NCBI GenBank assembly: GCA_050012515.1
Contig: JBEKHA010000013.1
Location: forward strand, 1,441-65,440
Direction of reading: 5' to 3'
DNA length: 64,000 bases
DNA from: Sedimentisphaerales bacterium
GTDB taxonomy: Bacteria > Planctomycetota > Phycisphaerae > Sedimentisphaerales > Anaerobacaceae
Shown here: one piece after another, positions 15,508-56,835 of the stretch
Layout of the letters: each line of letters starts with the position of its first letter
Position numbering within the stretch: position 1 is the first letter of the stretch
Notes under the pieces: model-generated
What the model saw: only the letters and a program-made list of their open reading frames with translations
Told to the model about the DNA's origin: nothing
Databases searched by the model: none
Translations under genes and position numbers: made by a program

Positions 15508-15512
15508 CTCAA

Positions 15513-15530
15513 ACGGAGCTTTTCCTCCGT
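15513..15530 (+). terminator. Hairpin downstream of the recombinase gene
   Basis: acggag-cttttc-ctccgt, a perfect 6-bp stem 6 nt after the stop. There is no strong U-tract. Confidence 0.3.
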
Positions 15531-15547
15531 AATCGAGCTTAATAGAA

Positions 15548-15571
15548 AACCTCCGACCTCCGGGTTATGGG
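15548..15571. repeat. 24-bp direct repeat identical to an internal part of tRNA-Met (distal att site)
   Basis: 'aacctccgacctccgggttatggg' is identical to 27378-27401, checked base by base. It overlaps an 8-bp inverted repeat ttatgggg/ccccataa at 15564-15584. Confidence 0.85.
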
Positions 15572-15758
15572 GCGGCTCCCCATAAAACGCCCATATGCGT
15601 CTGGAAATATATTTGCAGCAAGGATTGGTGGCGATGATGATTTCGCCGGGGGTAAAAACTACCTAAACAGAAGGTGAGAGCCAAGTAGGGCTTGCGGATA
15701 GTGCAAATACGGTTGGAAATAAAGCGTTTTTTGCGAGAGACGTGATACTTTAAAGCAA

Positions 15759-18700: not shown

Positions 18701-20486
18701 TCACGGCGTTCTCAAAATCTTCTTGTTGAGGCAAGTCCTTATTTGGATCAGGGATGAAATGTGCAAGATCTTTTCGGCGTTCGGGTGTCAGTTTGCGAAG
18801 AATGGTCAAGAGTCGCGTGAGATGATGAACCTCGAAAGGGCATTCTTTTTCGCTTGGGACTGGATCATCAAGCCAATTGAATAGCGGTTCGTTTTTGAGA
18901 ACAGTTCTTGCGATTTGGGCTGCTGTACCCTGATATGACCCGTTCGCAATGACCTGAGTATGGGTCTCGGATTCACGAATATCACGAATACGCCTTTCCA
19001 ACTGTGCCTTCTCTTGGCGAAGTTCTTTTAATTGAGCACTCATTCTTTCGCACTCACCGTGTCGGATTAGATTTTCTGTGTCCCATTCGTCATGTTTACT
19101 CAAAATGCGTCCAACACTTGCTTCTAGCGATCGCTGCTCATCGATTCCCTGACCGAGCAGATTAACGCATAAAGGTCGAATTTCCTCGGGGAGCAATCCT
19201 TCTAATACATGAAGCGCGCGAGGGGTTTTTGCGGTGACCAATACACGATGATCAGTAGCGAGAAGATGACAAATTAAATTTGCGATTGTGTGTGATTTTC
19301 CGGTACCAGGTGGGCCTTGGACAAGAATTCCGGTCGATTTTCTAAACTTTTCAATGATATGTCGCTGTTCATCATTTGCTGGTTTTGGAAAATATACCTC
19401 CGTGTCAATCATATCGGTTTCGAAATCATCATCCGGTTTATCTTGATGGTCTGCCGTATTCGGTATCTCTGCAAGATCTGCGAATTCCGATGGGATTCTT
19501 CCGCCTTGCTCAATAGATTGTTTCATATTCTTTAATATCTCAGTTAGCCCTCTGATAGATCTCTTACGAAGAATTAAGGCCGGTGCATATTGTACGATGG
19601 GTTTCACTGAGAGTGGTTCGCTTGCAGGTTCAATGACCTCACGGTATTCGCCATCAGGTTTAATCGAATGGACGAGTCCTTTTAAGACAGATTCGATAGA
19701 CGCTTGTTCCCAAGGGTCGTCATGAGTTCCCTGCAAACCTTCTTTGGCTGCGCGTTCCGCACCCGCAGGATGTTCTTCGACATCGAGCATATCAATTTCT
19801 ATGGTAAGTTGGGCGCCTTCTCTGGCCGGATGAATTGTGAAACGGCCGAGAGACGCTTCGAATTCAAGAGTGGCTTTTGCAGTTATTAAATGTCGCCTCA
19901 CATGCTGATTCTGAGGTGTTTGCCAGCATAAAAGCCCGAGACCAACCACAAGCTCATATTCCTCACCTAAACGTTTTTGCTCCTGGTATATTGTAAAAAG
20001 CTGCGAATATACTTTATGAATTGTTTCCCATTTTTTGTATAAATGAGACCAAGGCATCCAATTTCGTTCTATGTAGTTCTGCCATGCGTTAGCAACTTCA
20101 GGATAGTCAGCCAATTTTTCTGTCTTCGTAATGAACGCCAATTCCGAAGAACCTTTTGTCCATGCAGGATTTGGCTCCTGCTTTGTGATCTCATCGTGTA
20201 AAGCGGGAATATCCGTTGTCAGGTGAAGCGACTCTTGTATTACCCAATCACGGCAAACTTTTGGGATAGTTGGCAATTGCGGTTCTTTAGCAGTCTGCAC
20301 CTCTATCCATACATCAGGGTCGTGTTCTTCTTCTGGCCCCCAGAGACGAGTATAGCACCCCTTTTCGTGTGGGATCTCATGTAGCCACAGGACTCGCTCA
20401 TATTCACTGAAGTCCCTTATTATGCGAGATCGCAAATGGGCAATACGTATCAGATATTCAACCAATCTAACAGCTTTTTCGCTCAT
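15759..20486 (-). CDS. 1575-aa SF1 (Upf1/Dna2-like, AAA_11/AAA_12 type) helicase fused to a Vsr/DUF559-like endonuclease and a GreA/GreB C-terminal-like domain
   Basis: Walker A 'GPPGTGKS' (nt 19293-19316, aa 391). Walker B 'VDEASQ' (aa 1070), after a ~650-aa coiled-coil insert. 'FRCMPEI' and 'NVAASRAR' helicase motifs. Nuclease-like 'FIDLVIEG...AVECDGDEFH' (aa ~1372-1455). C-terminal 76 aa include 'TPIARALLGKQVEEQVQAKLPTG', which is GreA-C-like. Confidence 0.85.
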   Translation of the reverse strand: MSEKAVRLVEYLIRIAHLRSRIIRDFSEYERVLWLHEIPHEKGCYTRLWGPEEEHDPDVWIEVQTAKEPQLPTIPKVCRDWVIQESLHLTTDIPALHDEITKQEPNPAWTKGSSELAFITKTEKLADYPEVANAWQNYIERNWMPWSHLYKKWETIHKVYSQLFTIYQEQKRLGEEYELVVGLGLLCWQTPQNQHVRRHLITAKATLEFEASLGRFTIHPAREGAQLTIEIDMLDVEEHPAGAERAAKEGLQGTHDDPWEQASIESVLKGLVHSIKPDGEYREVIEPASEPLSVKPIVQYAPALILRKRSIRGLTEILKNMKQSIEQGGRIPSEFADLAEIPNTADHQDKPDDDFETDMIDTEVYFPKPANDEQRHIIEKFRKSTGILVQGPPGTGKSHTIANLICHLLATDHRVLVTAKTPRALHVLEGLLPEEIRPLCVNLLGQGIDEQRSLEASVGRILSKHDEWDTENLIRHGECERMSAQLKELRQEKAQLERRIRDIRESETHTQVIANGSYQGTAAQIARTVLKNEPLFNWLDDPVPSEKECPFEVHHLTRLLTILRKLTPERRKDLAHFIPDPNKDLPQQEDFENAVRQEQQFCNQIEALAPNSDKIIYDHLSSCKESDVRALLESIKQLNDSVTHLRSNTESWVSRCVQDILSGNHSRWWDLGCLTSESLDLYEERKGLAPIVSPENINRTHLLEDAKILKTHLESGSSLGWAVFRPKVVRQRRYILESVFVNSKQCRTLETIRDLVNNLELEKALQNAWDSWTPYFPENSHPISFQIAELKHRKNLLNQAFELQDFVKQCKEHLALCGNIPEPVWHDDSYLNKMFVSCQRVLALFQKQSVTAKIESWENHLLDLSMRSNAHSVVNKSLQAIRSHDSEELLRAKHDIDKIDKAAQVVRWADLFLKQIKELAPRFAHSLQETPNESVWDSRLPQLSKAWQWAQAKVYLNNYLNKDDLLSIERRVRQVENDIEKRISAIASLRAWSFCFKRMEEVHLRHLEAWQQSIRKLGKGTGKHAPRHRRDAQKHLNECVDVVPAWVMPLHRVWDTVDPKPEMFDTIIVDEASQCGPESLPLFYLGRKIIIVGDDKQISPDAVGIPRDAVYRLMEEFLHDFRFKDSFGVESSLFSHGKLRYGTRRVALREHFRCMPEIIHFSNDLCYSSTPLIPLRQYPPNRLKPLENVFIQKGHRQGSNANVTNRPEAEEIVQRIVDCCNDPQYSSKSMGVVVLQGEQQAKLIESMLLERLGASEMENRRLICGNPYSFQGDERDVMFLSMVAAPNEQIGVMGDADDERRFNVAASRARDQMWLFHSVTRNDLSTKCLRRRLLEFFEETRVQSIAGLDIATLKKTALNANRAIEKPPSPFESWFEVDVALEIAGKGYRVIPQFEVAGKFIDLVIEGHQSRLAVECDGDEFHGADRYEQDMQRQRMLERCKWVFYRVRGSSFYMDPANALAPLWNLLEDRGIMPLSANTLDQPFSDDMWKMSKPEVGSSVVVKVGDTVRYMDLQNPNDILEVSISKGESNPDFGIVNERTPIARALLGKQVEEQVQAKLPTGSICLKVLEIFSTK

Positions 20487-20782
20487 AAATGGCGCTGCCC
20501 AACTAAAACCTCTGCGTTAAGACCTCCTGACATAACAATAAAGATTATCGTCTTTTTTCGCCAATCAGTCAAGAACGATAAGATGATAACGCTGAAGTAT
20601 GGCGTAGGTGCTTATTTTCAATACTGTAAACGGCAAAATTGGCCAGCAAGGTAGGGCAAATCGCAAACCCCCGATTGCGGTCCCATATAGGGTCATAAGT
20701 TTAAGGAATAAAAAGACAAAAGTAAAGCAAAAGTGACATTAAACCGGACATTAATAAAAGCTACATTATTCAGTTTTATATT

Positions 20783-21403
20783 TCATCTATCCGTTAGCCC
20801 CAATTCGATTATGCTATTGACCACCTCTTTGAGCTTGATAGCCTCAACGCATTCGCTATCCTTTGATGGTAAATCTTCCAAAAGGAGCAAGAAGGGACTT
20901 AGCGTTCTTTTATCGATCTTTGCAGGTGCCAGCTTCATTGCCTTGACAAATTTAGTGTTATTGATAATACTAATCCAGCCACTTATCCGCCTTAATTCAG
21001 CTACGACTTCTTCCCCTATAAGAGATTTTAACTGCTCGGGGTCATCTCGTTTCTTAAGTTGCTCAAACTCAATTAGTTCTATATAGGCGGGGATCACTTT
21101 ATTATGCACGGCTGTACACAGCTCTTCTCGAGTCTTGGCTATCGATTGGGAATCGCTCCTGAGTTCATTTATCAGCCTTAGCGCAACCTGTTTAGAACTC
21201 TCCAAGATGTCATTATATGTCGCTCGTTTTATTTGAAGTTTCTCAAGATTTTCACCGGCATATCTGAACGCTTCTTCCTTGAACTTGGCTGTCTCGGCTT
21301 TTAATTTGCCAATCTCGACCTTGACACGCCATTGCTTCCCAAACCAGCCTACAAGCCCCCCTACGCCTACACAAATCGCGTTTAGCCAAAGGAGACCCAT
21401 CAT
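20783..21403 (-). CDS. Hypothetical membrane-anchored coiled-coil protein
   Basis: 206 aa. N-terminal TM 'LLWLNAICVGVGGLVGWF'. The start overlaps the upstream stop (TAATG). Confidence 0.6.
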   Translation of the reverse strand: MMGLLWLNAICVGVGGLVGWFGKQWRVKVEIGKLKAETAKFKEEAFRYAGENLEKLQIKRATYNDILESSKQVALRLINELRSDSQSIAKTREELCTAVHNKVIPAYIELIEFEQLKKRDDPEQLKSLIGEEVVAELRRISGWISIINNTKFVKAMKLAPAKIDKRTLSPFLLLLEDLPSKDSECVEAIKLKEVVNSIIELGLTDR

Positions 21404-21660
21404 TATTTACCTTCTAACTCTCTCTTGAGGTCCTGCATGACCCTGTCGAAATCATCCGATGACGACCTCTTTTCAATAATCTGGCCTTCTGAAAAAGAAG
21501 TAACTATCGAAAGAGCTATGATAATTTTATTATATGGAGTACCGGATGCTTGCTGATAGGACTGGTATAACCTGCTTGCTTCCTGTTCAGTCAGCTTTCT
21601 GCCTGCCAGCTTTTCAGCAGCTTCCCTTAATAATCGCCTGATCTCATACTCACTTGACAT
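21403..21660 (-). CDS. Hypothetical small protein (85 aa)
   Basis: AAGGA RBS 8 nt upstream of the ATG. Translationally coupled to the 206-aa gene. Confidence 0.55.
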   Translation of the reverse strand: MSSEYEIRRLLREAAEKLAGRKLTEQEASRLYQSYQQASGTPYNKIIIALSIVTSFSEGQIIEKRSSSDDFDRVMQDLKRELEGK

Positions 21661-22025
21661 GGCTCAATCCTTTCACAAAATGGTTTTTCTTTGCGTGCTC
21701 CAATACGAACACTACTATCTCTGCCCATAACACAGCATCTTCCAAAAGACCCTCTATGTTGCAGCAATTTCCCGACCCCACAATACCCCAAACCCTGTCT
21801 TTCGTCAATAATCGCTTTGCCCGCAAGGCTGGATTAACCCGGCTTTGCCTTGGGAAAGGCAAAAATGGAACTGTCATGTATCTAAGAGAAGAGGTTGTTG
21901 CCTATGAAAAACAAAGGCTGATTTCGACAAAATAAAAATCAAAGAAATCAGCAAAATCAAAATAAATCAAATATTTCAAAACTGCCCCGGTTTTGTGATC
22001 GCAAGTCCTTTTCCGGGGTAGTTGT

Positions 22026-23012
22026 CTACACAATATTAGATAAATCTGCCAGATATTTCCTCGTGTATCGTTTTGTTTTGGTATGCTCCCAAGTTTTCCT
22101 TATTCCAATTATAGAATTTATTGTTAGAGTCGCCCCAGCTGCGGCCTCTACAGCACAAGCTAAGAGACTCGAAGGGTCCTGGATAAAAAGACTCAATCCT
22201 AAACCAAATTGAATCCCTTCTCCTCCAAGTTGTACAATCTCATCTGAATATTGTTGAAAGATGCTGTCCCTTCTATCTAAGAATCCGCGATCAGCTTTGC
22301 CTTGCTCAAGATCATCAAAATATTTGTCCAACTCGTCGTGAAAAGCATGCAAGCGTTCTTTGAATCCTTTGCAGTTTCTGAATTGAATGATTCGATCTAG
22401 ACTGATTTGATGAAGATTTTTAGGTATTTTTAGCTTTAACAGTCCTTTGGCAATATCAATTTTTTCAGCTAGCTTCTTGTTGGGTCTGCGAGCAATACAT
22501 TCGAGTTCGTAGTACTCTTTGTAATCTGTTATTGGAGGTAATGATTTATCGTCTCCCATGATTTGTGCCAATAGAGACATGTACAAGAACCCCAAAGTAT
22601 TAGGTATAGCAATACCCTCCGAAACATTCCTCCCAAAACTGTTTTCAATACAATATCTTTCAAAATCATAGGAATATTTCTCGCTGTATATAGTACATTT
22701 CTGGTTTGATGGCGCTCTCCAATGGTTAATAAAGTCTGGCTCTTTAATTATCCCTGAATATACCTTGGGTTTTTTCACAACTTCTTCTATAACCCTTATT
22801 GCATCCAATGAAGCTAACCATGCATCCTCAGGCGTCGGATAAAGAGGCTCTAGGAGATCTGTTTCATTAAATACCTTTACATGCTTATCGCTAAGCTCTT
22901 TTTGTGCCGACCATGGGATTATGGGTTTTAGTTTGTCTATATAAAGAAGCGCAAACTTCAGCCAATCATCACTTTGAACTTCAAAACTAGGATAGTATAG
23001 TAATTTTTTCAT
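22026..23012 (-). CDS. Hypothetical 328-aa protein, third gene of the Gabija-like operon
   Basis: Starts 12 nt after the gajB-like stop. N-terminal 'LLYYPSFEVQSDDWLKFALLYIDKL' (I recall a DUF6236-like family; unverified). Hydrophobic C-terminal segment 'GLGLSLFIQDPSSLLACAVEAAAGATLTINSIIGI'. Confidence 0.65.
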   Translation of the reverse strand: MKKLLYYPSFEVQSDDWLKFALLYIDKLKPIIPWSAQKELSDKHVKVFNETDLLEPLYPTPEDAWLASLDAIRVIEEVVKKPKVYSGIIKEPDFINHWRAPSNQKCTIYSEKYSYDFERYCIENSFGRNVSEGIAIPNTLGFLYMSLLAQIMGDDKSLPPITDYKEYYELECIARRPNKKLAEKIDIAKGLLKLKIPKNLHQISLDRIIQFRNCKGFKERLHAFHDELDKYFDDLEQGKADRGFLDRRDSIFQQYSDEIVQLGGEGIQFGLGLSLFIQDPSSLLACAVEAAAGATLTINSIIGIRKTWEHTKTKRYTRKYLADLSNIV

Positions 23013-23024
23013 CTATCGGATCTC

Positions 23025-24998
23025 CTATACTTTAAGAATTAACCAACCATTGCCACTGAAAGCTTTGGGATCAAACCTATCCTTGTGAACTGCGAAACAT
23101 AATAAGTGCGTAGGTCGAGAAAAACCAACATAGACCATTCTCGCGCTTTGTTTTGTCCTATCACTAACCTTATCAGCTATTGTTTGGCCAGCAAACTGTT
23201 CTTTTAACCGTTGAGATTCATAAGATTTCGCATTTTCCCCATTGCCATCTTTATAATAATAGCTTTCCAAATATAGTGTTGCTGTATGTGTTTGGCCTTT
23301 TACAGAATGTACAGTTCCGATCTCAACGGCAATATCAGTCTTTTGACACCGATATATGTTATTTTTGGGTTTGGCATCGCTAGATTTGTCGGATGGTTCC
23401 GATATTGTCAGTGAGCTTTCGTCATTCACGAACTCAAACGATTTTTCTAAATTCCTTCCAAAACAATTCACAAATTGAGGGATAATATTCTTTATGTCAG
23501 AAAAGGCGTGATTAATTTTCTCTGAATAGATATCCCGGCACCAGTGGAAAAGTAGTAATCGAAAATCTTCATAGAAGCCTGTGTGTTCGTCCTTTAAATG
23601 TTTCTGCAAACTACCAATAGAAAAGTATCCGGTTTTGCTTTCAGGATTTTTTACTTGTTCTAAACGTAAAACTTTCAAAAAAGCATTCAAGATACTCTTG
23701 TAAATACTTTCTATGCCGTCTTTTTGTGAACCTTCTTTTTTTGCGAATAGCAGATAGCTTTTAAAGTTAGGATAGTCTGTTTTTGACTTAAAGGCATTTG
23801 TTTCAAAGTCAGGCCAATAATTTTTCAACCCAAATTTCCCGTCCTCACCTTTTCTCCATGCAATAGCTTTGATGGGATATTCGTAGTTCTCCGGGATTTT
23901 CCCACCATCTATATATTTCCTTACCAGTTCACAAAACTTTGGTAAAACATTCGATATTGAATTATCGTCAAAGACAATTACATGAGGAGGTAGGGCATCC
24001 TCTTGTGCATTTCTTCCCACAATCGGCTCACGTGGCATTCCAAATGGCTCAACTATTTTCGCAATCATTGATGATAACCGGCGGCTTCCAGTTATGGGAA
24101 GAACAGTTGCCCTGCTTATCCAAATATCGTCAAGCTTGATATCTCCAGAAAATATGGCCTGATTCTTATCGCCAATTCGCTGGTAAATGGAAGAACTATT
24201 GACATCATTAAAAATTTGTTCGAGTAAATTATACTGATGATAGTCCATATCCTGCATTTCATCGACAAAGGCATACCGAAATCGCTGCTGAAGTAAACGT
24301 TGCAATATGGGGTTTAATTTTATTGCTTTCAATGCCAATACGTAAGCATCATCGTAACATAAGATGCCTTTTTCTCTTAGTGCTTGCTTCATTTCGAGTA
24401 ATGATATGTATGTGTCACTATTTCTGTCTTTCAAAGGAAATCTATAATTGGCAATCACTAATTCATCGTTCTCGTTTAGACGGGATTCGTATAGAACGTC
24501 TCCTTTCTGGTAAGGATGATTGTCCAGCCATGCATAAGCTTTAGCAGGAATGTAAATATTCTCATTGTAACTCTCGTCATCAATTCGCCATGGTCTTTTA
24601 CCATACTTCTGCGTGTAATGCGGAATAGCCAAGAAAATATCAGCAAAGGTTTGAATAGTTCCAACAAAGTTCGGATATGCAAAGAGCTTAGGACAGTATT
24701 GGCCGATTCTCTTTTTTATTTCGTTAACCGCAGCATTAGTATGGGAGATTACAAGAATCCCCGAACCTTCTTCGAATGGTAAATGCCTTTCTAGTATTAG
24801 AAGTTTTGCAAGAAGAACGGTTGTCTTGCCGCTTCCCGGAACTGCTTGTAAGTCAATTGTTTCCAAATTTTTTATAAAGGCCTTGCGTTCATTGCGATCA
24901 TCGTCAAATGCTCCCCCCTTACCGAACAGGATCATTTCTGCGTGGGCAATGTCATTATCATTTATTTCTATCTTAGGCCGTGACATATTTAATAGCAT
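23025..24998 (-). CDS. gajB: UvrD/PcrA-like SF1 helicase (GajB-like)
   Basis: 'AVPGSGKTT' Walker A. 'FVDEMQD' Walker B. C-terminal 'TVHSVKGQTHTA'. Overlaps the end of the OLD-nuclease gene. An alternative ATG exists at 24986. Confidence 0.8.
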   Translation of the reverse strand: MLLNMSRPKIEINDNDIAHAEMILFGKGGAFDDDRNERKAFIKNLETIDLQAVPGSGKTTVLLAKLLILERHLPFEEGSGILVISHTNAAVNEIKKRIGQYCPKLFAYPNFVGTIQTFADIFLAIPHYTQKYGKRPWRIDDESYNENIYIPAKAYAWLDNHPYQKGDVLYESRLNENDELVIANYRFPLKDRNSDTYISLLEMKQALREKGILCYDDAYVLALKAIKLNPILQRLLQQRFRYAFVDEMQDMDYHQYNLLEQIFNDVNSSSIYQRIGDKNQAIFSGDIKLDDIWISRATVLPITGSRRLSSMIAKIVEPFGMPREPIVGRNAQEDALPPHVIVFDDNSISNVLPKFCELVRKYIDGGKIPENYEYPIKAIAWRKGEDGKFGLKNYWPDFETNAFKSKTDYPNFKSYLLFAKKEGSQKDGIESIYKSILNAFLKVLRLEQVKNPESKTGYFSIGSLQKHLKDEHTGFYEDFRLLLFHWCRDIYSEKINHAFSDIKNIIPQFVNCFGRNLEKSFEFVNDESSLTISEPSDKSSDAKPKNNIYRCQKTDIAVEIGTVHSVKGQTHTATLYLESYYYKDGNGENAKSYESQRLKEQFAGQTIADKVSDRTKQSARMVYVGFSRPTHLLCFAVHKDRFDPKAFSGNGWLILKV

Positions 24999-26796
24999 CG
25001 ATGAGATATTTTATTGCCTGATCATTTTCATCAATCGCTATAGCTGCTATATCTTGCTCAATTATCTGAGCTAATTTGTAGGCTATTTCGGTTTTGTCCA
25101 GAGTTCTCTTTATCAGCTTATCTGACAGACCTTGTTCAAAAGTGCAGTCTTCAATAATATTGGGGTGAACTATTCTAACAACTGATTCAAATGCAGCTGA
25201 CAGAGAGCTCGACTTACTGATACAGTATTCTAATGTCCAATGAGGAGAGGGAAATGTTTTCACTTTCTGTCCATTGTATTTGGCCTTTATTTCCGCTGTT
25301 TTAATCTCCTTTTGTGTCTTCCCGTTCGATGTAATATTCTCATCTTCCGGCTTCACGTCCAGATCCGTTATCACTGCGATAGGGACATTCATTTCTTGCC
25401 CATCTTTTCGCCGGAATATCTTTGCATATCGCAAAAAGGCCATGTTGCCGACATTGATGATGGAAACCCCCTTCTGCGTCAAATCTATGCCGACTTTCTT
25501 TGCCAGAACCGGCAAGAGCAACTCCTCAGACCATCCCTCAACGAGAATAACTCCTTTGGCAAAAAAGAGATTTGCCTTTGTTACATCAAGGAATCTTTCA
25601 AGAAATACATAATCATCGTCTTCCAGTTCAGTAAGCTTCTTCCTCATCGGAAAGGCCCGCTTGTCATGACAAATGATAAGATTATCCAACTCGACCTTTG
25701 ATGCAAGATTAGGACTGTGAGTAGTCAGTATGATTTGAACACCCTTGTTCTGCTTTATAAATTCCTCAAAAAACTCAATAACTCGTAATTGGGCCTGAGG
25801 ATGAAGATGCGCTTCAAGTTCTTCGATTAATGCGAGTCGCAATCCTGTCCAGTTCTGTCTTTTTAGATTTAATAGTTCAGCAGCAATAAAAAGTAGATTC
25901 TGACTTCCAAGGCCAAGCTTATCATCGCTCAAGGAAAGTTTGAACTGTTCGAGAATATTTTTTAGTTCCCTGTCTATAACATCAAAGTCTGCCTGATATT
26001 GTTCTTCTTCAAAAAATTGCTTAATCATATCCTGCAAATCTGCTCGAATACTTTCTCCTTCGTTTTTGTTTCCTGAACCCTTATCTTTAGGATTTTCCTT
26101 TGTCACAGGATAAAATCTATCTTGGTATGGACATGGAGTTTCAGTGCAATCTTTGGGTTTGTAATCCTTTTTAAAGTATTTCTTGAACAGGCAATTCCAA
26201 CAGCGAGCCAATAATGTTAATGTATGCCCTTTTTCTTTACCCTTGAAGGCATGATGTCCGGAAAGAATTTGAGACAGGCGGGAATTTCTTTTGGGAACAA
26301 GTTCCGATTTCGCATCCCGAAGAGGTTTTAAGTATGTCGTCCTTAAATAATCACGTGCTTCCGCTGTAAACAAAGCCCCATCATCGTCCGCTCCAGCCCG
26401 GACGTCATAATGCAATCGCTCGTTTCCCTTCTTGCTGGCATCCAAGATAACTTTAAGATATGGCTTTGCAGCTTCTCCCATACCTTCCATTCCCAGCCAT
26501 TCGATAAAGTGCATAGCCTCGTTGTCAGACAATTCATCAAAACGACACTCGATCCTTAATCTCTCTGTATTGTTGTGGAAGTCATCGGCAATCAACCTTA
26601 CCCACTCGCTGCTATGTGTATCCAGCACAAACTTAATAGCATCGATGATTGCTGTCTTACCTGAATCGTTAGCTCCTATCAGGACATTAAGCCCTTTAGT
26701 AAAAGACACAATAAGATCAGGTTTTGTTAAATCTAGTTTGCTATTTCCTGAACCAAATTTCCTAAAGTTCCACAATTTAATGTTTGAGAGGTACAT
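24973..26796 (-). CDS. gajA: OLD-family ATPase/Toprim endonuclease (GajA-like)
   Basis: 'IKLWNFRKF...LIGANDSGKTAIIDAI' ABC-ATPase N-terminus. 'LALIEELEAHLHP' Walker B / D-loop. Toprim 'ILVEGWSEE'. The first ATG is at 26796; the track uses a TTG at 26805. Confidence 0.85.
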   Translation of the reverse strand: MYLSNIKLWNFRKFGSGNSKLDLTKPDLIVSFTKGLNVLIGANDSGKTAIIDAIKFVLDTHSSEWVRLIADDFHNNTERLRIECRFDELSDNEAMHFIEWLGMEGMGEAAKPYLKVILDASKKGNERLHYDVRAGADDDGALFTAEARDYLRTTYLKPLRDAKSELVPKRNSRLSQILSGHHAFKGKEKGHTLTLLARCWNCLFKKYFKKDYKPKDCTETPCPYQDRFYPVTKENPKDKGSGNKNEGESIRADLQDMIKQFFEEEQYQADFDVIDRELKNILEQFKLSLSDDKLGLGSQNLLFIAAELLNLKRQNWTGLRLALIEELEAHLHPQAQLRVIEFFEEFIKQNKGVQIILTTHSPNLASKVELDNLIICHDKRAFPMRKKLTELEDDDYVFLERFLDVTKANLFFAKGVILVEGWSEELLLPVLAKKVGIDLTQKGVSIINVGNMAFLRYAKIFRRKDGQEMNVPIAVITDLDVKPEDENITSNGKTQKEIKTAEIKAKYNGQKVKTFPSPHWTLEYCISKSSSLSAAFESVVRIVHPNIIEDCTFEQGLSDKLIKRTLDKTEIAYKLAQIIEQDIAAIAIDENDQAIKYLIDAIKYVTA

Positions 26797-26855
26797 AATA
26801 ATCAAAGCTCACATTATCTTGTTCTCTTATCATTAATACTTCCGTATCTAGCTAT

Positions 26856-47385: not shown

Positions 47386-50300
47386 CTACTTAATGCCCAG
47401 GGCTTCCTTCATCTTGGCTTCCTTCTGGGCTTCCGCCGCCTTGCCTTCTTCAATTTCACTCACTTCTTTGAATTCCTTGGGCAACGGCGCCTCGGCAAGG
47501 TGTTTAACCTTCAATTCCAGATATGGCTTAAACGCCGTGCCTGCCGGTATCAAATGCCCAAGTATCACGTTCTCTTTCAAACCGGCGAGTTTGTCTATGT
47601 TACCACCTAACGCCGCTTCGGTCAATATCTTTGTCGTCTGCTGGAAGCTGGCTGCGGCGATAAAGCTGTCCGAACGCAGCGATGCCTTGGTAATACCCAA
47701 AAGCAGCGTCTTGGCTGTTGCCATTTTCGGTTTTTTGCCCTTCGCCGGCTCGCCGCCGATTAATTCAACCTTTTCGTTGATGGTCGCCAGCTTGGCCTTA
47801 TCTATGACCTGACCTTCTTTAAGCTCATGCGCCTCGCCCGCGCTGGCTATCTTGATGCTTTCATTGAGCCGCGTGTTTTCCCTGCGGAACTCAAATTTGT
47901 CAACCACTTCGCCAGGTAAAAACTCGCTGTCGCCCACCGACTCAATCTCAATCTTTCGCATCATCTGTGAACATATAATCTCGATATGCTTGTCGTTGAT
48001 ATTGACGTTCTGCGAACGATAAACGTTCTGAATTTCGCCAATCAAATATCTCTGCAGCGACTCTTCGCCCTTAATCCGCAGAATATCATGCGGAACCAGC
48101 GGGCCGTCGGTCAGCGTGTCGCCTGCCTCGACCATATCGCCCGTGTGAACATTCAAATGCCTGTCACGCGGCACGTGGTGTTCCTTTTCCATACCGGATT
48201 CGGAACGAATAATAATCGTCATCTTGCCCTTGCGCTTGTCGCTCTTGAGCTCAACGCGTCCGCTGATTTCCGCTATGGCCGCCGGGTCTTTGGGCTTGCG
48301 TGCCTCGAATACTTCCGTAACTCGCGGCAAACCGCCCGTGATATCCTGCGTTCCGCCCGTGGCTCTGGGCTGATGAGCAAGCAGCTGGCCCGCCTGGACC
48401 TGCTGGCCTTCCGTAACCTCTATTCGGGCGCCCGCGGGCAGATAGTGAACGTCAAGAATCTTGCCTTGGGCATCCTCAATCATAATCTGCGGGTGCTTAT
48501 CACCCTTGTGCTCGATTATGACCGGCTTATTGCCCAGCTGGCCTTTGCGCTCCTCTTCAAGCCGAATCGTCTCGCCTTCGATAATATCCACAAAGCGGAT
48601 TAAACCCGAAACCTCCGCCAATATCGGCGTGCGGTGCGGGTCCCACTCAAACAGCAGCGCCCCGCTTTTTACCTCTTCATTATTTTTCACTCTGACAATC
48701 GCGCCGTAAGGAACCTTGAACTTGTCAAGCTCGCGGTCCTTGTCATCCAGGATAGCAATCTCACCGTTACGCTTCAGGGCAACCGCCCTCGTACTGCCGT
48801 CCTCAGCAGTAAACACTACCGCGTTTAAATCGCGATAAAGTATTTTGCCCGGCTGAGTCGCTCTCTGCTCACGCTCCAGAATGGCACGAGAGGCAATACC
48901 GCCGGTGTGGAACGTTCGCAGTGTCAACTGTGTGCCCGGCTCGCCGATTGACTGGGCGGCTATAATCCCAACGGGCAGGCCTTCTTCAACAAGCTGCCCA
49001 GTGCTCATATCCCAGCCGTAACACTTCGCGCACATCCCGAACGGACTGTCGCACGTCAGCGGACTTCTGACCCTGATTGCGTCAAGCCCAAGCGCCTCAA
49101 TCTTCACGGCCGCGTCAGGCGTTATGACCTCATTTTCCCGGACAATCATCTCATCGGTAATCGGGTTGCGGATGTTGTCCCTTGCGGTCCTGCCGATAAT
49201 AAGCTGCGTCAAAGGCACATCAACCTGCTCGCCCCTGGCGACTGTGCTCTTGGTAATACCCTGCAGCGTCCCGCAATCCCTCTCGGTAATTATCATATTC
49301 TGAGCAACATCTATAAGTTTGCGGGTAAGATAACCCGAGTTGGCTGTCTTCAACGCCGTATCCGCAAGACCTTTTCTGGCGCCGTGCGTCGAGCTGAAAT
49401 ACTCGAGAACCGTCAATCCCTCGCGGAAGTTCGACTTAATCGGTGTCTCGATAATCTCGCCGCTGGGTTTGGCCATCAACGCTCGCATACCGGCAAGCTG
49501 CTGAATCTGGTCAACGCTGCCTCTCGCGCCGGAGATACTCATCATATAAATCGGGTTCAGATATTCTCTGATATTTAACCTTGGCACAGATCTTTCCGGA
49601 TATGCATATGCACGCATTAAATTATTTTTAATAATTTTCCAATCGATCTGATTGAATTGTTCATCTAACTCTGGGAAAAAAGTAAATTCTAAATTCTTTT
49701 TTATATAATCAATCGCACTAATATCATCCAACTTTTCAATTTTTTTAACAGCTTTATAAAGGCTATTATCTTTATTCTGAACAGTGTCTTTAATGCGATC
49801 CCAGCCACGATTGGTATATCCAATCCACTCTACTTTTTCGCTTTCTTTATTCCGGAAAACGATTATGCCTGGCTTGGAAGTTTCACTTCCACGAGACACA
49901 CTCGGATCGGAATACCATTTTGTGCCTGCTTCAATTGCCTTTCGGCATCTTTCAACGAATTGATCAGCTTTCTCGTTTTTAGATCTTACATTGTCAATAT
50001 CGTCTTCGTAATCTTCCTTGAGACCCTTCATCATTTCGCTCGTTACCGCGACACGAGAATTAGTCCAGGCATCAATAACCTGGTTGTACCGCTCGCCCTC
50101 GGTCAATACGCCGGCCTGATAGTTCTTCAGCACTTTCTTAACACGTTTTTCAGTCTCTTCGATGATGATTTCTTTTTTGTCCGGAATCTTCAAATCCATT
50201 ATGCCGAAGCTCAGCCCCGACAAGGTCGCATGCCTGAATCCTTTTTCTTTAATCTTGTCCAACAAATCAACCGTCGCCGCACTGCCGGCAATCGCGTAAC

Positions 50301-52122
50301 AATCGCTGATTACCTGGCTCAACGGCTTCTGTCCCATCGTCCCATTGTAGAATGGCATCTTCGCAGGCAAAATATCGTTGAAAATACACCTGCCGGCTGT
50401 CGTCTCAACCACGATTGGCTTTGAAATCTCCTTACTCTTTAAATCTCTCGCCTTTTCGCCTTCCTTAATCACCGGCTTGGTAATCCGGACCTTAATTTTG
50501 GCGTGCAGGGCAATCTTGCCCATATCACAAGCAAGCATCGCCTCGAACGTATCACGGAACGCCATCCCTTCGCCCTTCTGGCCCGAAAGCATACTGGTCA
50601 GATAGTAATTGCCCAGCACCATATCCTGAGAAGGCCCGACCATCGGCGAACCGTTGGCAGGCGAGAAAATATTGTTCGTGGTCATCATCAGCGTATGGGC
50701 TTCGGTTTGTGCCTCGACGCTCAACGGCAGATGCACCGCCATCTGGTCGCCGTCGAAGTCCGCGTTGAACCCTTTGCAGGCCAGCGGATGCAGCATAATC
50801 GCGTTGCCTTCCACCAGCACCGGCTCAAACGCCTGAACACCCATCCTGTGCAGCGTCGGCGCACGGTTCAGCAGCACGGGGTGCTCGTGAATCACTTCTT
50901 CGAGAATATCCCATATCTGCTCGCCGCGGCGCTCAATCATTTTCTTGGCGCTCTTAATTGTGTCCGCAAGCCCGCTTTGTTTGAGCCGGCGGATAATAAA
51001 CGGCTGATACAATTCCAGCGCAATTCTCTTCGGCAGCCCGCACTGGTGCAATCTCATCGTCGGCCCTATTACAATAACCGAACGCGCCGAATAATCTACT
51101 CGCTTGCCAAGCAGGTTTTCCCTGAATCGTCCCTGCTTGCCTTTTATCATATCGCTCAAGCTCTTCAACGGCCTGTTGTTGCTCCCCAGCACCGGCCTTC
51201 TGCACCTGCCGTTGTCCATAAGAGAATCGACCGCCTGCTGAAGCATTCGCTTTTCGTTGCGAATAATAACTTCAGGAGCGTTGAGGTCCATTAGTTTTTT
51301 CAACCGGTTGTTACGGTTGATTATACGCCTGTAAAGGTCGTTCAAATCGCTCGTCGCGAAATTGCCGCTTTCAAGCAGCACCAGCGGACGCAAATCGGGC
51401 GGTATGACCGGAATCACCTCAAGAACCATCCACTCCGATTTATTATTGCTGTTCTTTATCGCGTCGATTGTCTTGAGACGCTTGCTAAGGTCTTTCATTC
51501 GCTGAACCGAGCTTGTCTTGCTTATCGCTGTTCGCAGCTCAGTGCTGATGCCGTCCAAATCAAGCCGGGTAAGCAGGGTTTTTATCGCCTCGCCGCCCAT
51601 CGCAACCTTGAAACTGCTGCCGTACTTGGTGGTGGCGTCGCGGCATTCCTCTTCCGAAAGCAGTTGCCCGAGTTTGAGCGGGCTTGGGCCGGGGTCGGTA
51701 ACCAGGTAATCCTGGTAATAGATTACCTTCTCAAGGTCCATTCCCTTCATTCCAAGAACCGTCCCCAGCTGATTCGGAACTGCCTTGAAAAACCATATAT
51801 GAACGCACGGAGAGGCAAGATTGATATGCCCCATTCTCTTGCGGCGAACCCTGCTGTGCGTAACCTTCACCCCGCAGCGGTCACAGATGATACCTTTATA
51901 TTTCGTCCCTTTATACTTGCCGCATGCGCATTCCCAGTCCCGCTCCGGTCCGAATATACGTTCGCAGAAAAGACCATCCTTCTCAGGCCTGTACGTTCGG
52001 TAATTGATTGTTTCGGGCTTGCGAACCTCGCCGAACGACCAGCTGCGAATATCATTGGGACCGGCAAGCGAAATCTTGACCGAACCGTAATCATTTATCC
52101 GATCATAGATATTGCTTATCAT
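47386..52122 (-). CDS. rpoC: DNA-directed RNA polymerase subunit beta-prime (1578 aa)
   Basis: Zn finger 'CECGKYKG..C..CGV'. 'NADFDGDQM' active site. Bridge helix. Trigger loop with an SI3-like insert. One additional low-GC insert, described separately. Confidence 0.97.
49561..50020 (-). other. Low-GC in-frame insertion (~135-150 aa) in rpoC, directly after the secondary-channel rim helices
   Basis: It lies between '[11 protein letters not shown]...SEMMKGL' and '[15 protein letters not shown]', where E. coli has only ~24 aa. The DNA is visibly AT-rich compared with flanking rpoC. Confidence 0.75.
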
Positions 52123-52191
52123 TTATCTCTGGCTCCTTAATGACACTATTGCCAATATAATCAACAAGGGTTCCCGACACTCTATTAACCT

Positions 52192-55100
52192 TTACAAAGT
52201 TGCTGTTCCGCCCAGCCGTTTCTTTTCGAGCTGGATATTCAGACCCAGCCCTCTTATTTCATTGCAAAGCACATCAAACGACAGCGGCGTCCCGGCTTCG
52301 AGCGTATTTTGCCCCTTTACCATCGACTCGTATATCTTGGTGCGGCCTTCGACATCGTCGCTCTTGACCGTAAGCATTTCCTGCAGTGTATAAGCTGCGC
52401 CGTAACCTTCCAGCGCCCACACTTCCATTTCGCCGAACCTCTGTCCGCCGGTCCTCGCCTTGCCGCCCAATGGCTGCTGCGTTATCAAGCTGTAAGGCCC
52501 CGTCGAACGAGCGTGAATCTTGTCGTCAACCAGATGATGCAGTTTCATAATATAGATAAACCCAATCGTCGCCTGCTGGTCGAACGGTTCCCCCGTCCGC
52601 CCGTCATACAATTGCGTCTTCAGTGACTTGGGAACCTGCACAAAAAGCTCATCATCCGCGGGGGCCTGGTCCGCTTTCTCAAGCTCAATCTTTCGACGAG
52701 CCATCAATCTGTTGGCCTCCTCGGTCAGGTCCCTGATGTCCTGCTCCTTGGCGCCGTCGAATACAGGCGTAACTGCCGTAAAGCCCAATACCTTTGCCAC
52801 CCAGCCCAGATGCGTCTCAAGAATCTGGCCGACGTTCATTCTGCTCGGCACACCCAGCGGGTTGAGCAGTATGTCAATCGGCGTGCCATCCTCAAGGAAC
52901 GGCATATCTTCCTGCGGCAACACCTTCGCGATAACGCCTTTGTTGCCGTGGCGACCCGCAATTTTGTCTCCAATCGACATAATCCGTTTGGTCGCGACAT
53001 ATATTTTGACCATTTCGATAACGCCGCTGGGAAGCTCATCGCCGTGTTTCAGCCGTTCGACTCGCTTTTTGGCTTCCTCATCGAGCGCTTTTATTTTCTC
53101 AATAAACTTATCCGCCAGCTTCTCGACCTTTTCCCGCATCGTGGCCGGCTTTACCCATTTTACATCCCAGTTGGTAACCTGCTCGTAAACAACCTCGTCA
53201 TCTTCGCTGATGCCGGCCTTTTGTCTGCTGGACGGGTCAACAATATCGACCTCGAATTTCTCATGAATCGCGGTCACCATCTGCCTGAATATCACGCACT
53301 GCTGTGACCGTATACCTTTTTCAATTTCTCTTATCTGGGCGTTAAGCGCCTTTTTGCCCTCTTCGCCGCCTGCCCCTCGCCGCACAAAACGCTCGGTTTT
53401 AATGACGACGCCTTCGTAACCGTTGGGCAGCTCAAGCGAATCATTCTTAACGTCTTCGCCGGCCCTGCCGAATATCGCATGCAGCAGTTTTTCTTCCGGT
53501 GTAAGCTCGGTCTTGCCCTTCGGCACAACCTTGCCCACCAGGATATCGCCCGGCTGAACTCTCGTGCCCTCCTGAACCACGCCGTGCTCGTCAAGATTAC
53601 GCAGCGCTTTTTCGCTTACGTTTGGTATATCGTTGGTGAATTCTTCCTTGCCCAGCGGCGTCTCGCGTATCTCGGCGTCAAATTCATTGATATGAATACT
53701 TGTGAAACTGTCATTCCTGACTAATCGCTCGCTGACAATGATGGCATCCTCGAAGTTGAATCCTTCGTATGACATAAACGCGCAAAGCACGTTCCTGCCC
53801 AGTGCAAGCACACCGTTTTCAGTGCCGCCGCCGTCGGCCAGCGTCTGGTCTTTCTCAACCCTTTGTCCAAGTTTGACAATCGGCCTCTGGTTAAGACACG
53901 TCCGCTCATTCAAGCCGAAGTATTTCTCCAGCTTGTATTCATCCGTATGATTAATTACAACCTTAGTGGCATCAACCGCGGTAACTGTCCCCGCCTTTTG
54001 CGCCCGCACAACCATACTCGAATACCGCCCCGCCATCTCTTCCATACCCGTCTGAACAAGCGGCGCCTGGCACTTCAACAACGGCACCGCCTGGCGCTGC
54101 ATGTTTGAACCCATCAGCGCCCTGTTCGCGTCGTCATGCTCGAGGAACGGTATCAGCGCAGCCGACAAACCCACAATCTGCTTGGGCGAAACATCGACGT
54201 AGTTCACCTCGTCGTGTCCTACCTGTGCAAGCTCGCCCTGCTGTCGTGCCAGCACCATGCCTTCCGGTATCCTGTTTGTTTCCGGGTCAACCGCGCTTGG
54301 CGGAGCAAATATCGCTTTCATTTCCTCATCCGCCCGCAGGAACGCGACGCTTCCCGTAACTTTGCCCTTGTCAACCTTGTAATAAGGCGACAGCAGGAAT
54401 CCGTATTCGTCAACCGTGGCGAATATCGCCAGCGAGCTGATAAGACCAATGTTTGTGCCTTCCGGCGTTTCTACCGGGCAAATCCTGCCGTAGTGACTGA
54501 TATGAACGTCGCGAACCTCAAAGCCCGCGCGTCTTCTGTTCAAACCGCCCGGCCCAAGCGCCGACAAACGTCTTTCGTGTGTCAACTGGCTAAGCGAATT
54601 GGTCTGGTCAACTATCTGGCTCAGCTCGCCTCGTCCGAAGAAAAAGTTTATGCTGCTCGATACGCTCTTCGAGTTGACAAGGTCCGCTATCCGCAATGGC
54701 TGCTCGCCTTCCTTCATCGTGCTCATTCGTTCCTGCACGGTCTTGCGAAGCTTTAAAAGCCCCTTGCGAATTTCGCCGCCCGCCAGCTCATCAATTGTTC
54801 TCAGCCGACGGTTGCCCAGATGGTCGATATCGTCAACCTCGCCCTCGTTGTTACGCAGCCCGATTATATATTTCACCGCGTTGATGAAATCCTCGGCCCG
54901 CAGCGTCATTTCCGTAAGGGCAACGCTTTGCCCGAATTTACGATTCAGCCGGAACCTGCCCACTTTGCCTAACCGGTACCGGTTGACATCAAAGAATTTC
55001 TCATCGAAAAATTGTTTGGCCTTTTCCTGGTTGGCAGGATTGCCGGGCCGCAACCTGACGTAAAACTTCAATAACGCCTGCTCATGATTCTTGCAGTCGT

Positions 55101-56757
55101 CTTCCGCAAGCGTATTGAACACCAGCGCATCACACGACCCTTCGACTACCTCGATACGCTTTAACTCGCCTTGCTGATCCTTCTGGGTTCTAGGGTATTC
55201 TAGGCCAATTTTCTTATAATATTTTTCTGGTTCTTCGTCCTGGAGTTGTCGCCCTATATCCCATAAAGGAGCATCCAATTCCCCTGGATATTCGGGATTC
55301 AGTTTAGCTGCGATTTCTTGGACACTTTTTCTGTCAATTTCTGTAAGTTCTCTGCCCGCAAGACATCTCTCTCTAAGCTTTATCTCTGAAACAAAGCCGT
55401 ATTTTGCCATTGACCTTGCAACATGTCTATCCACAGCCACAGGAATATTTTCTGGATCTTTAAAAGGACCTGCTGTGAACTCGAATGATTTAGAATTCCT
55501 ATGAAGAATATTAACCAAGAGGGGGGCTATCTTATGTTCACCCACATAATCGATATCAGCGAGGGCAGCAATTACGTCCTTCGCACTTCTGCCTGCCCAA
55601 AAGGATACAACGTCACCATTAAAATCATCTACAACTTTCTTACAGAAGTCTTTTATTGCTTTCGCCGCACCTCCTGAAGCCAAACCACTGATGAGTCCTT
55701 TTATTTCTTCAATGGTACGCTCCTTAATATCTGAAACTTCAAGGCTTCCAAAAGAATCTTTCATCTTTTTCGGCACAGAAAATGAATCTTTAGCCTCAAT
55801 CGGTCGCATACAAAAGACTGCTATGACAAGAGCGAGAGGGTTTGTTCTAACCAACTTAAGATCTGCCTTATCATCTACTTCAAAAAAGTCGGGAAGCTTC
55901 TTGCCATATCTCAAGAGAGCATTTACGACGCTACTTTTGGGTACTCTTTCTTCTGTCACACCAGAAATATTGGCTTGCTGAATAATCGAAACCTTGTCGC
56001 CGATTTGCGCGCCCGCTTTTACGATGATTTCGCCGCTTTCGGTATCGACGATATCTCGCACCACCCACATATCAGGCGAAAGCTTGTTCTTCTGCACCTC
56101 TTTGGTTTCGTAAAACCGCCTGATTATCTGTTCGGTCTCGCTGAAATCGGCGCTTAATGCACGCAGGAAAATCGTCGCGGGAATCTTGCTCGACTGGTCG
56201 ATTTTCACAACCAGAACGTCTTTGTGTGTAACGCTGATTTCTATCCAGCTTCCGCGTTCCGGGATAATTCTGCCCCCGTGAAGTATGCGGTCGCCTTCTT
56301 TGCTCTCTACGAGGAAATCAACGCCGGGACTTCTGTGAAGCTGGCTTACGATAACCCTTTCGGCCCCGTTGATAATGAACTCACCGCCGCCAATCATGAC
56401 GGGTATTTCGCCGAGATATATCGCCTGTTCGGCTATGTCCTGTCCGTCCTTGTTGCGAAGCCGGCAGGTAATCTTCAGCGGATAACCGTACGTCAGGCGA
56501 AGCTGCCTGCATTCGTTTATGCTGTACCTCGGCTGCTCAAGCTCATAGTAAAGGTACTCAAGGATTATCCCTTTGTCGTAGCTCTCTATCGGGAAGGTTT
56601 CCCGAAACAGCTCTTCCAGACCCCTGTTGGCGCGCTTTGTCGGCTGCGCGTCCATTTGCAGAAACTCTCCGTAGCCCTTCCTCTGCACGACAACAAGGTC
56701 AGGGATTTCGACTTTCTCCCGCATTTTGCCGAAATTACGAACTTTCAATTCAGCCAT
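52192..56757 (-). CDS. rpoB: DNA-directed RNA polymerase subunit beta (1521 aa)
   Basis: Canonical conserved regions: '[15 protein letters not shown]', 'GRHGNKGV', '[13 protein letters not shown]', '[14 protein letters not shown]'. One low-GC insert, described separately. Confidence 0.97.
55165..55965 (-). other. Low-GC in-frame insertion (~265 aa) in rpoB with HhH-GPD (EndoIII-like) motif landmarks
   Basis: It lies between 'IIQQANISG' and 'LKRIEVVEG'. HhH '[17 protein letters not shown]' (nt 55501-55560). '[12 protein letters not shown]' loop. '[10 protein letters not shown]' (nt 55381-55440). Confidence 0.6.
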
Positions 56758-56835
56758 TTTTCAGTCCCGAATTAAACGGCAATCGTTAAATTGTCCGATT
56801 TTTTATTTTTGGCCCTTTTGGGGCACAATTAATAT

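Follow-up and report, generated by a model that had tools for sequence, protein, structure and literature searches.

An HhH-GPD domain of foreign composition inserted in frame into the RNA polymerase beta subunit of a Sedimentisphaerales bacterium

How might an RNA polymerase (RNAP) beta subunit come to contain a domain with the fold of a DNA glycosylase, and what could such a domain do there? The question is raised by rpoB in a 64,000-nucleotide stretch of DNA from a Sedimentisphaerales bacterium, a sediment planctomycete (contig JBEKHA010000013.1 of assembly GCA_050012515.1, positions 1,441 to 65,440). This whole stretch is called the window below, and positions are those of the window unless another contig is named. 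A first-pass annotation, made from the sequence alone, had described the gene as canonical apart from a block of ~265 amino acids (aa) and had read that block as an in-frame module resembling endonuclease III (EndoIII) and related DNA glycosylases. The gene and the block are the following.

52192..56757, minus strand: rpoB coding sequence (CDS), 1521 aa, host of the insertion; assigned from the open reading frame (ORF) and its RpoB Pfam domains, and identical to NCBI MGD0573449.1 from a Sedimentisphaerales metagenome-assembled genome
55171..55974, minus strand: in-frame insertion encoding an HhH-GPD domain, exactly 804 bp (268 codons), RpoB aa 262-529; recognized by its absence from relatives, its G+C content at third codon positions (GC3) and its fold assignment

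An extra block of 268 codons in rpoB

The rpoB ORF is uninterrupted, its product has all six of the six RpoB Pfam domains, and the gene stands in a minus-strand operon of the order tuf-(rpmG)-secE-nusG-rplKAJL-rpoB-rpoC. With every RpoB domain kept and the extra material confined to codons 262-529, the description of the gene as otherwise canonical was accurate. So was the statement that the two segments bordering the block are normally contiguous, since they are joined directly in every other RpoB examined. The nearest relatives read '...KVSIIQQS-EIKKIEVVEGS...' at the site, and in the RpoB alignment the window protein has one extra block there.

The block had also been described as AT-richer than flanking rpoB, similar in composition to an AT-rich island elsewhere in the window, and open in frame. 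These descriptions agree with the measured values. The G+C content is 0.39-0.42 over ~55250-56000, compared to 0.50-0.56 in the flanks. The GC3 of the block is 0.33; it is 0.64 in the remainder of rpoB, lies between 0.62 and 0.64 in rpoC, tuf, and rplA, and is 0.33-0.39 in genes of the AT-rich island (~13.6-27 kb). The block is free of stops in the rpoB frame, which at its base composition has a chance probability of 6e-9, while each of the five other frames contains 4 to 28 stops. No second copy of the block is present within the window. Disruption of rpoBC expression by the block was considered and set aside, a coding-strand terminator-like site not being found in it.

The block encodes an HhH-GPD domain

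Profile and structure searches had been proposed as the check on the fold, and the profile part came out in favor of HhH-GPD. With the insert alone, PF00730 scored 22.9 bits (E = 1.1e-4), just under its gathering threshold of 26.2 bits, and the NCBIfam model TIGR03252 ('HhH-GPD-type base excision DNA repair protein') matched at 40.3 bits (E = 2.3e-10), and the homologs and the family profile described below were likewise positive. The relationship to TIGR03252 is significant and is not one of equivalog membership, the equivalog cutoff of 136.5 bits not being reached; the best free-standing homologs score 95-107 bits against this model.

Queried with only the insert, a word-indexed search returned no homologs; these surfaced only in an exhaustive HMMER search with the insert, which covered 1.84 billion representatives. 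It yielded 179 homologs, with a best E value of 2.6e-17 at 38% identity, that span query residues ~14-243 end to end. RpoB is not among them; they are all free-standing proteins, 200-790 aa long. The free-standing homologs exceed the PF00730 threshold (27.7-29 bits), and some carry the EndoIII Fe-S motif. A search with the family profile added 218 further members, bearing such source names as 'uncharacterized HhH-GPD family protein', 'endonuclease III', and 'iron-sulfur cluster loop'. Against solved structures, the family profile matched EndoIII (1p59/1orn, E = 2e-9) across the whole domain, followed by MutY.

An AlphaFold2 model built from the family alignment is all-helical and has a predicted local distance difference test score (pLDDT) of 89.4 and a predicted template modeling (TM) score (pTM) of 0.87. 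In a Foldseek search of the PDB, all matches at E ≤ 1e-3 are HhH-GPD enzymes, namely, EndoIII (1orn, target TM score of 0.67), MutY/MUTYH, OGG1, the MIG thymine glycosylase 1kea, and the queuine-salvage protein DUF2419. The top viral match in BFVD is EndoIII of Halogranum tailed virus 1. The structural part of the proposal was thus borne out, since only HhH-GPD enzymes were matched in either database. The alternative named along with it, that the block folds as a known BBM/SBHM (BEAN/HABAS) insertion of RNAP, does not hold for an all-helical model.

Four independent routes (profile matches, homologs, family profile, and AlphaFold/Foldseek) agree and confirm that the block is an HhH-GPD domain of the EndoIII/MutY type. 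Together, these data show that the block is real coding sequence, a complete 268-residue HhH-GPD domain translated in frame within RpoB.

Public records of the insert-bearing protein (NCBI MGD0573449.1; JGI 3300040758) are annotated merely as 'DNA-directed RNA polymerase subunit beta', and the precomputed Pfam annotation of the insert-bearing RpoB record lists no HhH-GPD domain. In that JGI metagenome the source contig is Ga0439235_0000065, at 100% identity.

Landmarks kept and lost in the domain

Alignments of the block with E. coli EndoIII (EcNth) and with the family delimit the following segments.

55504..55563, minus strand: helix-hairpin-helix (HhH) segment, with the hairpin YVG in place of the family's GxG
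55447..55494, minus strand: private 16-residue loop extension between the HhH and the Asp, longer than in EcNth or any family member
55411..55440, minus strand: segment with Asp443 (55429..55431), which is aligned to the catalytic Asp of EcNth, D138
55336..55386, minus strand: private 17-residue insertion
55246..55302, minus strand: best-conserved block of the family, where it directly precedes the Fe-S cluster motif
55171..55245, minus strand: 25-residue C-terminal linker back into RpoB, in place of the family's Cys-X-Cys-X-Cys-X-Cys Fe-S loop

In the multiple alignment with E. coli EndoIII, the EndoIII landmarks occur in the order that the first-pass annotation had given. Asp443 lies within VAVDRHV, downstream of the HhH, and occupies a family-invariant column. 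Lys409 (55531..55533) aligns with EcNth K120 in an uncertain register, the hairpin having a one-residue insertion. Together with Asp443 and Lys409, His445 and Arg448 are retained. One landmark had been misread: the 'Gly/Pro loop' taken for the canonical GPD loop is the private 16-residue extension relative to E. coli EndoIII. The remark that no Fe-S Cys cluster follows the motifs was correct. The Cys-X6-Cys-X2-Cys-X5-Cys loop is not kept, and the four Cys columns, each at least 90% conserved among 127 diverse members, hold Q/K/K/Y or gaps.

The losses extend beyond the cluster. Among 63 columns conserved in at least 85% of 85 members, the insert keeps 29, and the members themselves keep 48-63 (median, 60). 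Across the more diverse 127 representatives, 35 columns reach 80% conservation and 25 reach 90%; the insert retains 20 and 14 of them, respectively, and no member is as low. Positions lost in this set include the first hairpin Gly (now Tyr), D56, W65, D178, V188, and R223; the subfamily alignment adds the 'LHR' motif, E62, and R186. The insert has a net charge of -2 and an isoelectric point (pI) of 6.1, compared to family medians of +9 and 9.25. These values show the insert, which has lost about 40% of the family-conserved positions, to be the most degenerate member seen of its otherwise Fe-S-containing family, and such degeneracy argues against an ordinary repair glycosylase.

A recent arrival in a native rpoB

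The insertion site was compared in three relatives represented by syntenic contigs, L014, L001, and L002 (ENA assemblies ERZ25039519 and ERZ25039480). The block is absent at an identical empty site in L014 (~96-98% nucleotide identity), L001 (~95%), and L002 (~87%). It is absent as well from all 120 of the 120 nearest RpoBs and from the sole member of the 90% cluster that spans the site. An alignment of related RpoBs had been suggested as a way to date the insertion, and it limits the block to one strain-level lineage. Ancestral presence followed by precise loss was rejected as unparsimonious, since an identical empty site is found in the three relatives and in every other Phycisphaerae RpoB.

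Frameshifts, probably due to long-read homopolymer error, split rpoB, rpoC, tuf, and fusA into several gene calls in the contigs of the relatives. Such frameshifts explain many 'partial' RpoB database entries and could hide insert-bearing alleles from protein-level searches.

Junction alignments and codon comparisons with the relatives gave the following features.

55974..55981, minus strand: junction direct repeat TCAGCAAG (8 bp), left copy
55170..55177, minus strand: junction direct repeat TCAGCAAG (8 bp), right copy
55156..55170, minus strand: five host-like codons with clustered substitutions directly 3' of the insert, GGC GAG TTA AAG CGT (GELKR), compared to AGC GAA ATA AAG AAA (SEIKK) in relatives

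Because the direct repeat is present at both junctions, the boundary of the block is ambiguous by 8 bp. The empty site reads TCAGCAAAG in the relatives and TCAACAAAG in L014. Except for the five codons 3' of the insert, both flanks differ from L001 at background divergence (~3%); in the first interval past the 3' junction, divergence rises to 0.16, compared to a background of ~0.03. The background divergence of the flanks therefore indicates that the block entered a native rpoB and brought no long foreign tract with it. Import within a long recombination tract of divergent rpoB was rejected on the same ground, flank divergence being equal to background except for ~15 nucleotides at the 3' junction. 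The junction substitutions, here and at the rpoC inserts described below, could reflect error-prone repair synthesis or rapid linker adaptation.

The comparisons with relatives show a strain-level and very recent acquisition into an otherwise native rpoB. The block came from an AT-rich foreign gene pool equal in composition to the defense island of the window. Because the insertion is young, with GC3 unameliorated and flanks that differ by only 3-4%, the divergence of the domain from its family would predate the insertion. We infer that an Fe-S-less, low-charge variant was already present in an unsampled donor, which would favor a specialized, noncanonical function over decay.

The insertion site on RNA polymerase

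The insertion point maps to approximately residues 327-329 of E. coli beta, within beta-i4 (residues 225-343). In this lineage a single BBM2/BEAN unit forms SI1/beta-i4, and the site is the turn that precedes the last strand of that unit, so that the block is a domain nested in a resident insertion domain. E. coli beta-i4, known as 'dispensable region I', tolerates insertions and deletions and projects toward the downstream duplex, leaving a gap of ~15 Å (PMC2939025). Phage T4 Alc has been proposed to bind near beta-i4 and to read C versus 5-hydroxymethylcytosine (PMC2939025). The betalobe-Si1 walls the downstream-DNA channel on one side and is contacted, along with the beta-prime rim helices, by TraR (PMC6970531). 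Sensing of lesions or modified bases ahead of the polymerase, as initially suggested for the block, would fit this geometry.

Companion inserts in rpoC

The downstream gene rpoC also differs from that of the relatives, and one relative has an rpoC insert of its own.

47386..52122, minus strand: rpoC CDS, 1578 aa; assigned from the ORF
49564..50010, minus strand: in-frame foreign insert in rpoC, RpoC aa 705-853, 447 bp replacing 21 bp (net gain of 142 aa), GC3 of 0.30; absent from L014, L001, and L002
L001 17072-17656 (equivalent to window 48460-48467): AT-rich insert (G+C content of 0.44) in L001 rpoC, ~192 codons, open in frame, at RpoC aa ~1219; absent from the window, L014, and L002

At the site of the window rpoC insert, the relatives read KEDKKDDGSAYLNPIY, and the window sequence differs there. 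The site maps to approximately residues 703-715 of E. coli beta-prime, in the loop just past the secondary-channel rim helices. The insert has no Pfam, PHROG, or PADLOC match, and its single-sequence AlphaFold model (pLDDT of 60) is too poor for a structure search. The L001 insert is homologous to it in circularly permuted order (z = 10.3 versus 2000 shuffles), while collinear controls gave z values of ~0-0.9. Over ~20 kb of shared core genes, the three inserts are the only large indels, and the rpoC inserts suggest recurrent selection for grafts on RNAP.

Clustered substitutions in host-like codons occur at junctions of all three inserts: SEIKK to GELKR (window 55156-55170), KKDD to YEDD (window 49999-50010), and GKI to GRI (L001, near 17640-17656). 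Beyond those codons, the flanks of all three are at background divergence. Transposon-like termini were looked for and rejected; none is common to the three inserts, and the sole repeat is the 8-bp direct repeat at the rpoB junctions.

Defense context of the homologs and of the window

Free-standing homologs were sampled for gene context at three loci, and these are not housekeeping repair loci. One is next to a helicase/PLD-nuclease operon and toxin-antitoxin genes, one overlaps a Ser/Thr kinase gene beside an SNF2 helicase gene, and one stands in a phage-like run of small ORFs. Many homologs (P0129, P0131, P0143, P0165, P0137, and P0362) are fused to DUF6884 (PF21818) and others to DUF7669. 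The DUF6884 partner matches the PADLOC candidate defense protein PDC-M57A (E = 5e-27) and the phage family phrog_5935, and it has a weak match to DpdC of the 7-deazaguanine DNA modification system. On the viral contigs of IMG/VR, the HhH-GPD family was represented by no more than three proteins, all distant and free-standing.

The AT-rich island at 13675-26805 is a mobile defense island, and its GC3 of 0.33-0.39 is like that of both RNAP inserts in the window. Its genes are the following.

13675-15507, plus strand: large serine recombinase
15759-20486, minus strand: 1575-aa protein with an SF1 helicase (AAA_11/AAA_12), an REase_MTES_1575 nuclease, and a C-terminal GreA/GreB domain
23025-24998: UvrD helicase of a Gabija-like pair
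24973-26805: OLD-TOPRIM/AAA_15 ATPase of the same Gabija-like pair

Two further ORFs in the island (20783-21403 and 22026-23012) have no Pfam match. The GreA/GreB C-terminal domain of the 1575-aa protein covers aa 1501-1571 and scores 36 bits, which is over the Pfam cutoff. This domain normally docks at the RNAP secondary channel, and the same window has RNAP inserts flanking that channel.

HhH-superfamily glycosylases take part in defense elsewhere: Dag1 and Dag2 protect against phages by cleaving 7-deazaguanine DNA (bioRxiv 10.1101/2025.10.29.685425), and in END nucleases an inactivated EndoIII/Ogg-like C-terminal domain senses hypermodified DNA (PMC12191111).

Proposed role and alternatives

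We propose, at even probability and with the function inferred only, that the recent foreign HhH-GPD graft serves as an RNAP-borne surface module in phage-host conflict. The domain would stay in mature beta as a surface module without canonical repair chemistry, and two versions of its action can be envisaged. It may sense or bind DNA of the downstream duplex that is unusual or modified, akin to the sensor domains of END nucleases and a counterpart in cis of T4 Alc. Alternatively, factors that work through the beta-lobe/secondary-channel face may find in it a docking or shielding surface. Such a conflict-related sensor or docking module would be more likely than a housekeeping glycosylase. A broader proposal, which we regard as doubtful, treats RNAP as a chassis for immune or conflict modules, with domains from the defense pool grafted repeatedly, within one species-level population, on loops framing the downstream-DNA and secondary channels. 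The graft sites would then be beta SI1, the beta-prime loop past the rim helices, and the beta-prime SBHM region, and the HhH-GPD graft would read or cut modified phage DNA during transcription. On this view, the circular permutation between the two rpoC inserts would hint that insertion follows a dedicated or unusual route, such as sampling from a tandem or circular donor, and does not consist of isolated accidents.

Several observations weigh against a conflict module. Neither PADLOC nor PHROGs has a match to the insert itself, no direct donor was found (best identity, 38%), and the defense context comes from three sampled neighborhoods and is circumstantial. The near-neutral charge and the degenerate YVG hairpin weaken a role in DNA binding. 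Across 5.8 billion protein clusters, the GTDB representatives, and a JGI metagenome scan, no second RNAP carrying this insert came to light, and a single insert-bearing allele is known. For the rpoB, rpoC, and L001 inserts together, no other insert-bearing locus was found in GTDB species representatives, a JGI metagenome scan, GenBank phages, or IMG/VR, in scans that are not exhaustive: the JGI peptide-pattern scan missed this locus's own contig, which an exact-sequence lookup finds in JGI. Finally, three insertions in two strains could reflect tolerant surface loops of RNAP rather than selection.

One alternative is that the domain is a tolerated passenger, acquired horizontally and recently by illegitimate recombination into a dispensable surface loop of RpoB, of no use there, neutral or slightly deleterious, and likely to be lost. 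The site is insertion-tolerant 'dispensable region I' (PMC2939025), the insert is restricted to one strain-level lineage, its GC3 is unameliorated, and the domain is degenerate; moreover, the junctions have an 8-bp microhomology or direct repeat, together with clusters of nearby substitutions that are typical of error-prone repair. A random fragment, however, would hardly resemble what is present, a whole structural domain of confidently predicted fold that extends from close to the N-terminal helix as far as the last conserved block, with the Fe-S loop trimmed off. The divergence of the domain also appears older than the insertion, more than one assembly has the allele with the insert as its consensus, and rpoB and rpoC of two sister strains hold three in-frame foreign inserts, compared to none in at least 15 neighboring core genes. 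We consider a passenger rather unlikely, if still a serious contender. An active transcription-coupled glycosylase seems improbable to us; such an enzyme, either monofunctional or also a lyase, would excise damaged or modified bases from the duplex downstream as RNAP advances. Asp443 and Lys409 align with EndoIII D138 and K120, His445 and Arg448 are kept, and the fold is predicted to be intact. Fe-S-less HhH-GPD enzymes exist, for example, OGG1, which is among the structural matches; AlkA is another HhH-GPD enzyme without an Fe-S cluster. SI1 is directed at downstream DNA (PMC2939025), and Dag1/Dag2 provide a precedent for cleavage of 7-deazaguanine phage DNA (bioRxiv 10.1101/2025.10.29.685425). 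Against activity stand the loss of all four Fe-S Cys residues (at least 90% conserved in the family) and of 15 of 35 conserved positions, a net charge of approximately 0 compared to +9, and the ~15-Å distance of E. coli SI1 from DNA. In addition, it would be dangerous to create abasic sites or nicks in the cell's own template directly in front of the polymerase.

An assembly or binning artifact, in which a foreign fragment was chimerically joined into rpoB, is very unlikely, even though the contig is metagenome assembled, the composition foreign, and no other genome in the scans shows the insert. An artifact at the junctions was the remaining refuting condition named in the first-pass annotation, and like the other two it did not refute the reading. 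The insert is exactly 804 bp, is in frame at both junctions, and comprises 268 stop-free codons (P = 6e-9), its boundaries are those of a whole domain with linkers, and the loop that carries it is known to be permissive. Three contigs that differ in length (JGI and NCBI) encode the identical 1521-aa protein; rpoC has a second in-frame insert, and in L001, from an independent ENA assembly, there is a comparable in-frame insert whose family is related. The most improbable alternative by far is a self-removing element, an intein or a self-splicing intron, that would leave mature RpoB without the block. In-frame insertion in an essential, conserved gene is the classic niche of inteins, which are known in RNA polymerase genes (PMC1635734). 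The intein was rejected because the block has no Hint or intein Pfam match at E ≤ 10, its fold is HhH-GPD and not Hint, and its junctions (QQ|ANISG...DQQ|GELKR) lack the N-terminal Cys/Ser, the C-terminal His-Asn, and the Cys/Ser/Thr at +1 of an intein; the site, furthermore, is a variable surface loop rather than a conserved active-site motif. A group I or group II intron was likewise rejected, there being no Rfam match at E ≤ 1 in 49000..56800, and an intron would not need an open frame.

Implications

Searches of the literature turned up no account of an RNAP insert with a glycosylase fold, in line with the initial remark that none was known. Lineage-specific inserts of RNAP are viewed as ancient, as clade defining, and as belonging to two fold classes, BEAN in beta and HABAS in beta-prime. 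The present case breaks all three generalizations: the fold is that of a DNA repair or defense enzyme, the gain is at the strain level with foreign codon usage intact, and a second insert in beta-prime is accompanied by a third, permuted relative in a sister strain. If functional, the domain would be the first base-recognition module built into the transcribing enzyme and would give a direct handle on how cells might couple transcription to recognition of damaged or phage-modified DNA. Even as a passenger, it would represent domain accretion in an essential enzyme caught in progress, with insert-free alleles for comparison, and the early evolution of multidomain proteins would thereby become experimentally approachable.

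Comparison with known systems

Inserts at beta-SI1/beta-i4 are the closest class by position. Like the block, they are independently folded extra domains carried in frame on a surface loop of the beta lobe; sites of this class tolerate insertions, and the inserts can contact regulators such as TraR/DksA. The beta inserts surveyed so far are assigned to BEAN, and their distribution follows bacterial phylogeny (PMC11515920). The block differs from these BEAN/BBM2 inserts in being an all-helical HhH-GPD domain that does not have the BEAN fold. Known lineage-specific inserts are, moreover, shared by clades, whereas the block occurs in one strain-level lineage, is foreign in codon composition, and counts free-standing proteins from defense and phage contexts among its relatives. 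RNAP inteins resemble the block as sporadic, horizontally acquired, in-frame insertions in essential polymerase genes. They differ in that the block has no Hint domain or splice residues, lies at a nonconserved site, and is expected to remain in the mature protein.

With EndoIII (Nth), MutY, and TIGR03252, the insert shares a common fold and ordered landmarks. The [4Fe-4S] enzymes EndoIII and MutY are free-standing and carry the cluster, while the insert is embedded, lacks the Cys residues, has the YVG hairpin and two private loops, and is near neutral; it stands outside the EndoIII/MutY Fe-S family proper. END nucleases and Dag1/Dag2 have HhH-superfamily domains that were recruited from repair into phage defense and recognize hypermodified or 7-deazaguanine DNA, and the insert family likewise occurs in defense-like and phage-like neighborhoods. 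Their domains are nuclease fused or free-standing, whereas the insert is grafted into RNA polymerase, and the END domains lack catalytic residues, whereas the insert keeps the Asp and the Lys. T4 Alc, like the role proposed here, would place a module at the beta2/SI1 face, where it is proposed to tell modified from unmodified cytosine in downstream or nontemplate DNA during elongation (PMC2939025). Alc, however, is a separate phage protein that acts in trans against the host, while the insert is covalently part of the host beta subunit, and the parallel implies no homology.

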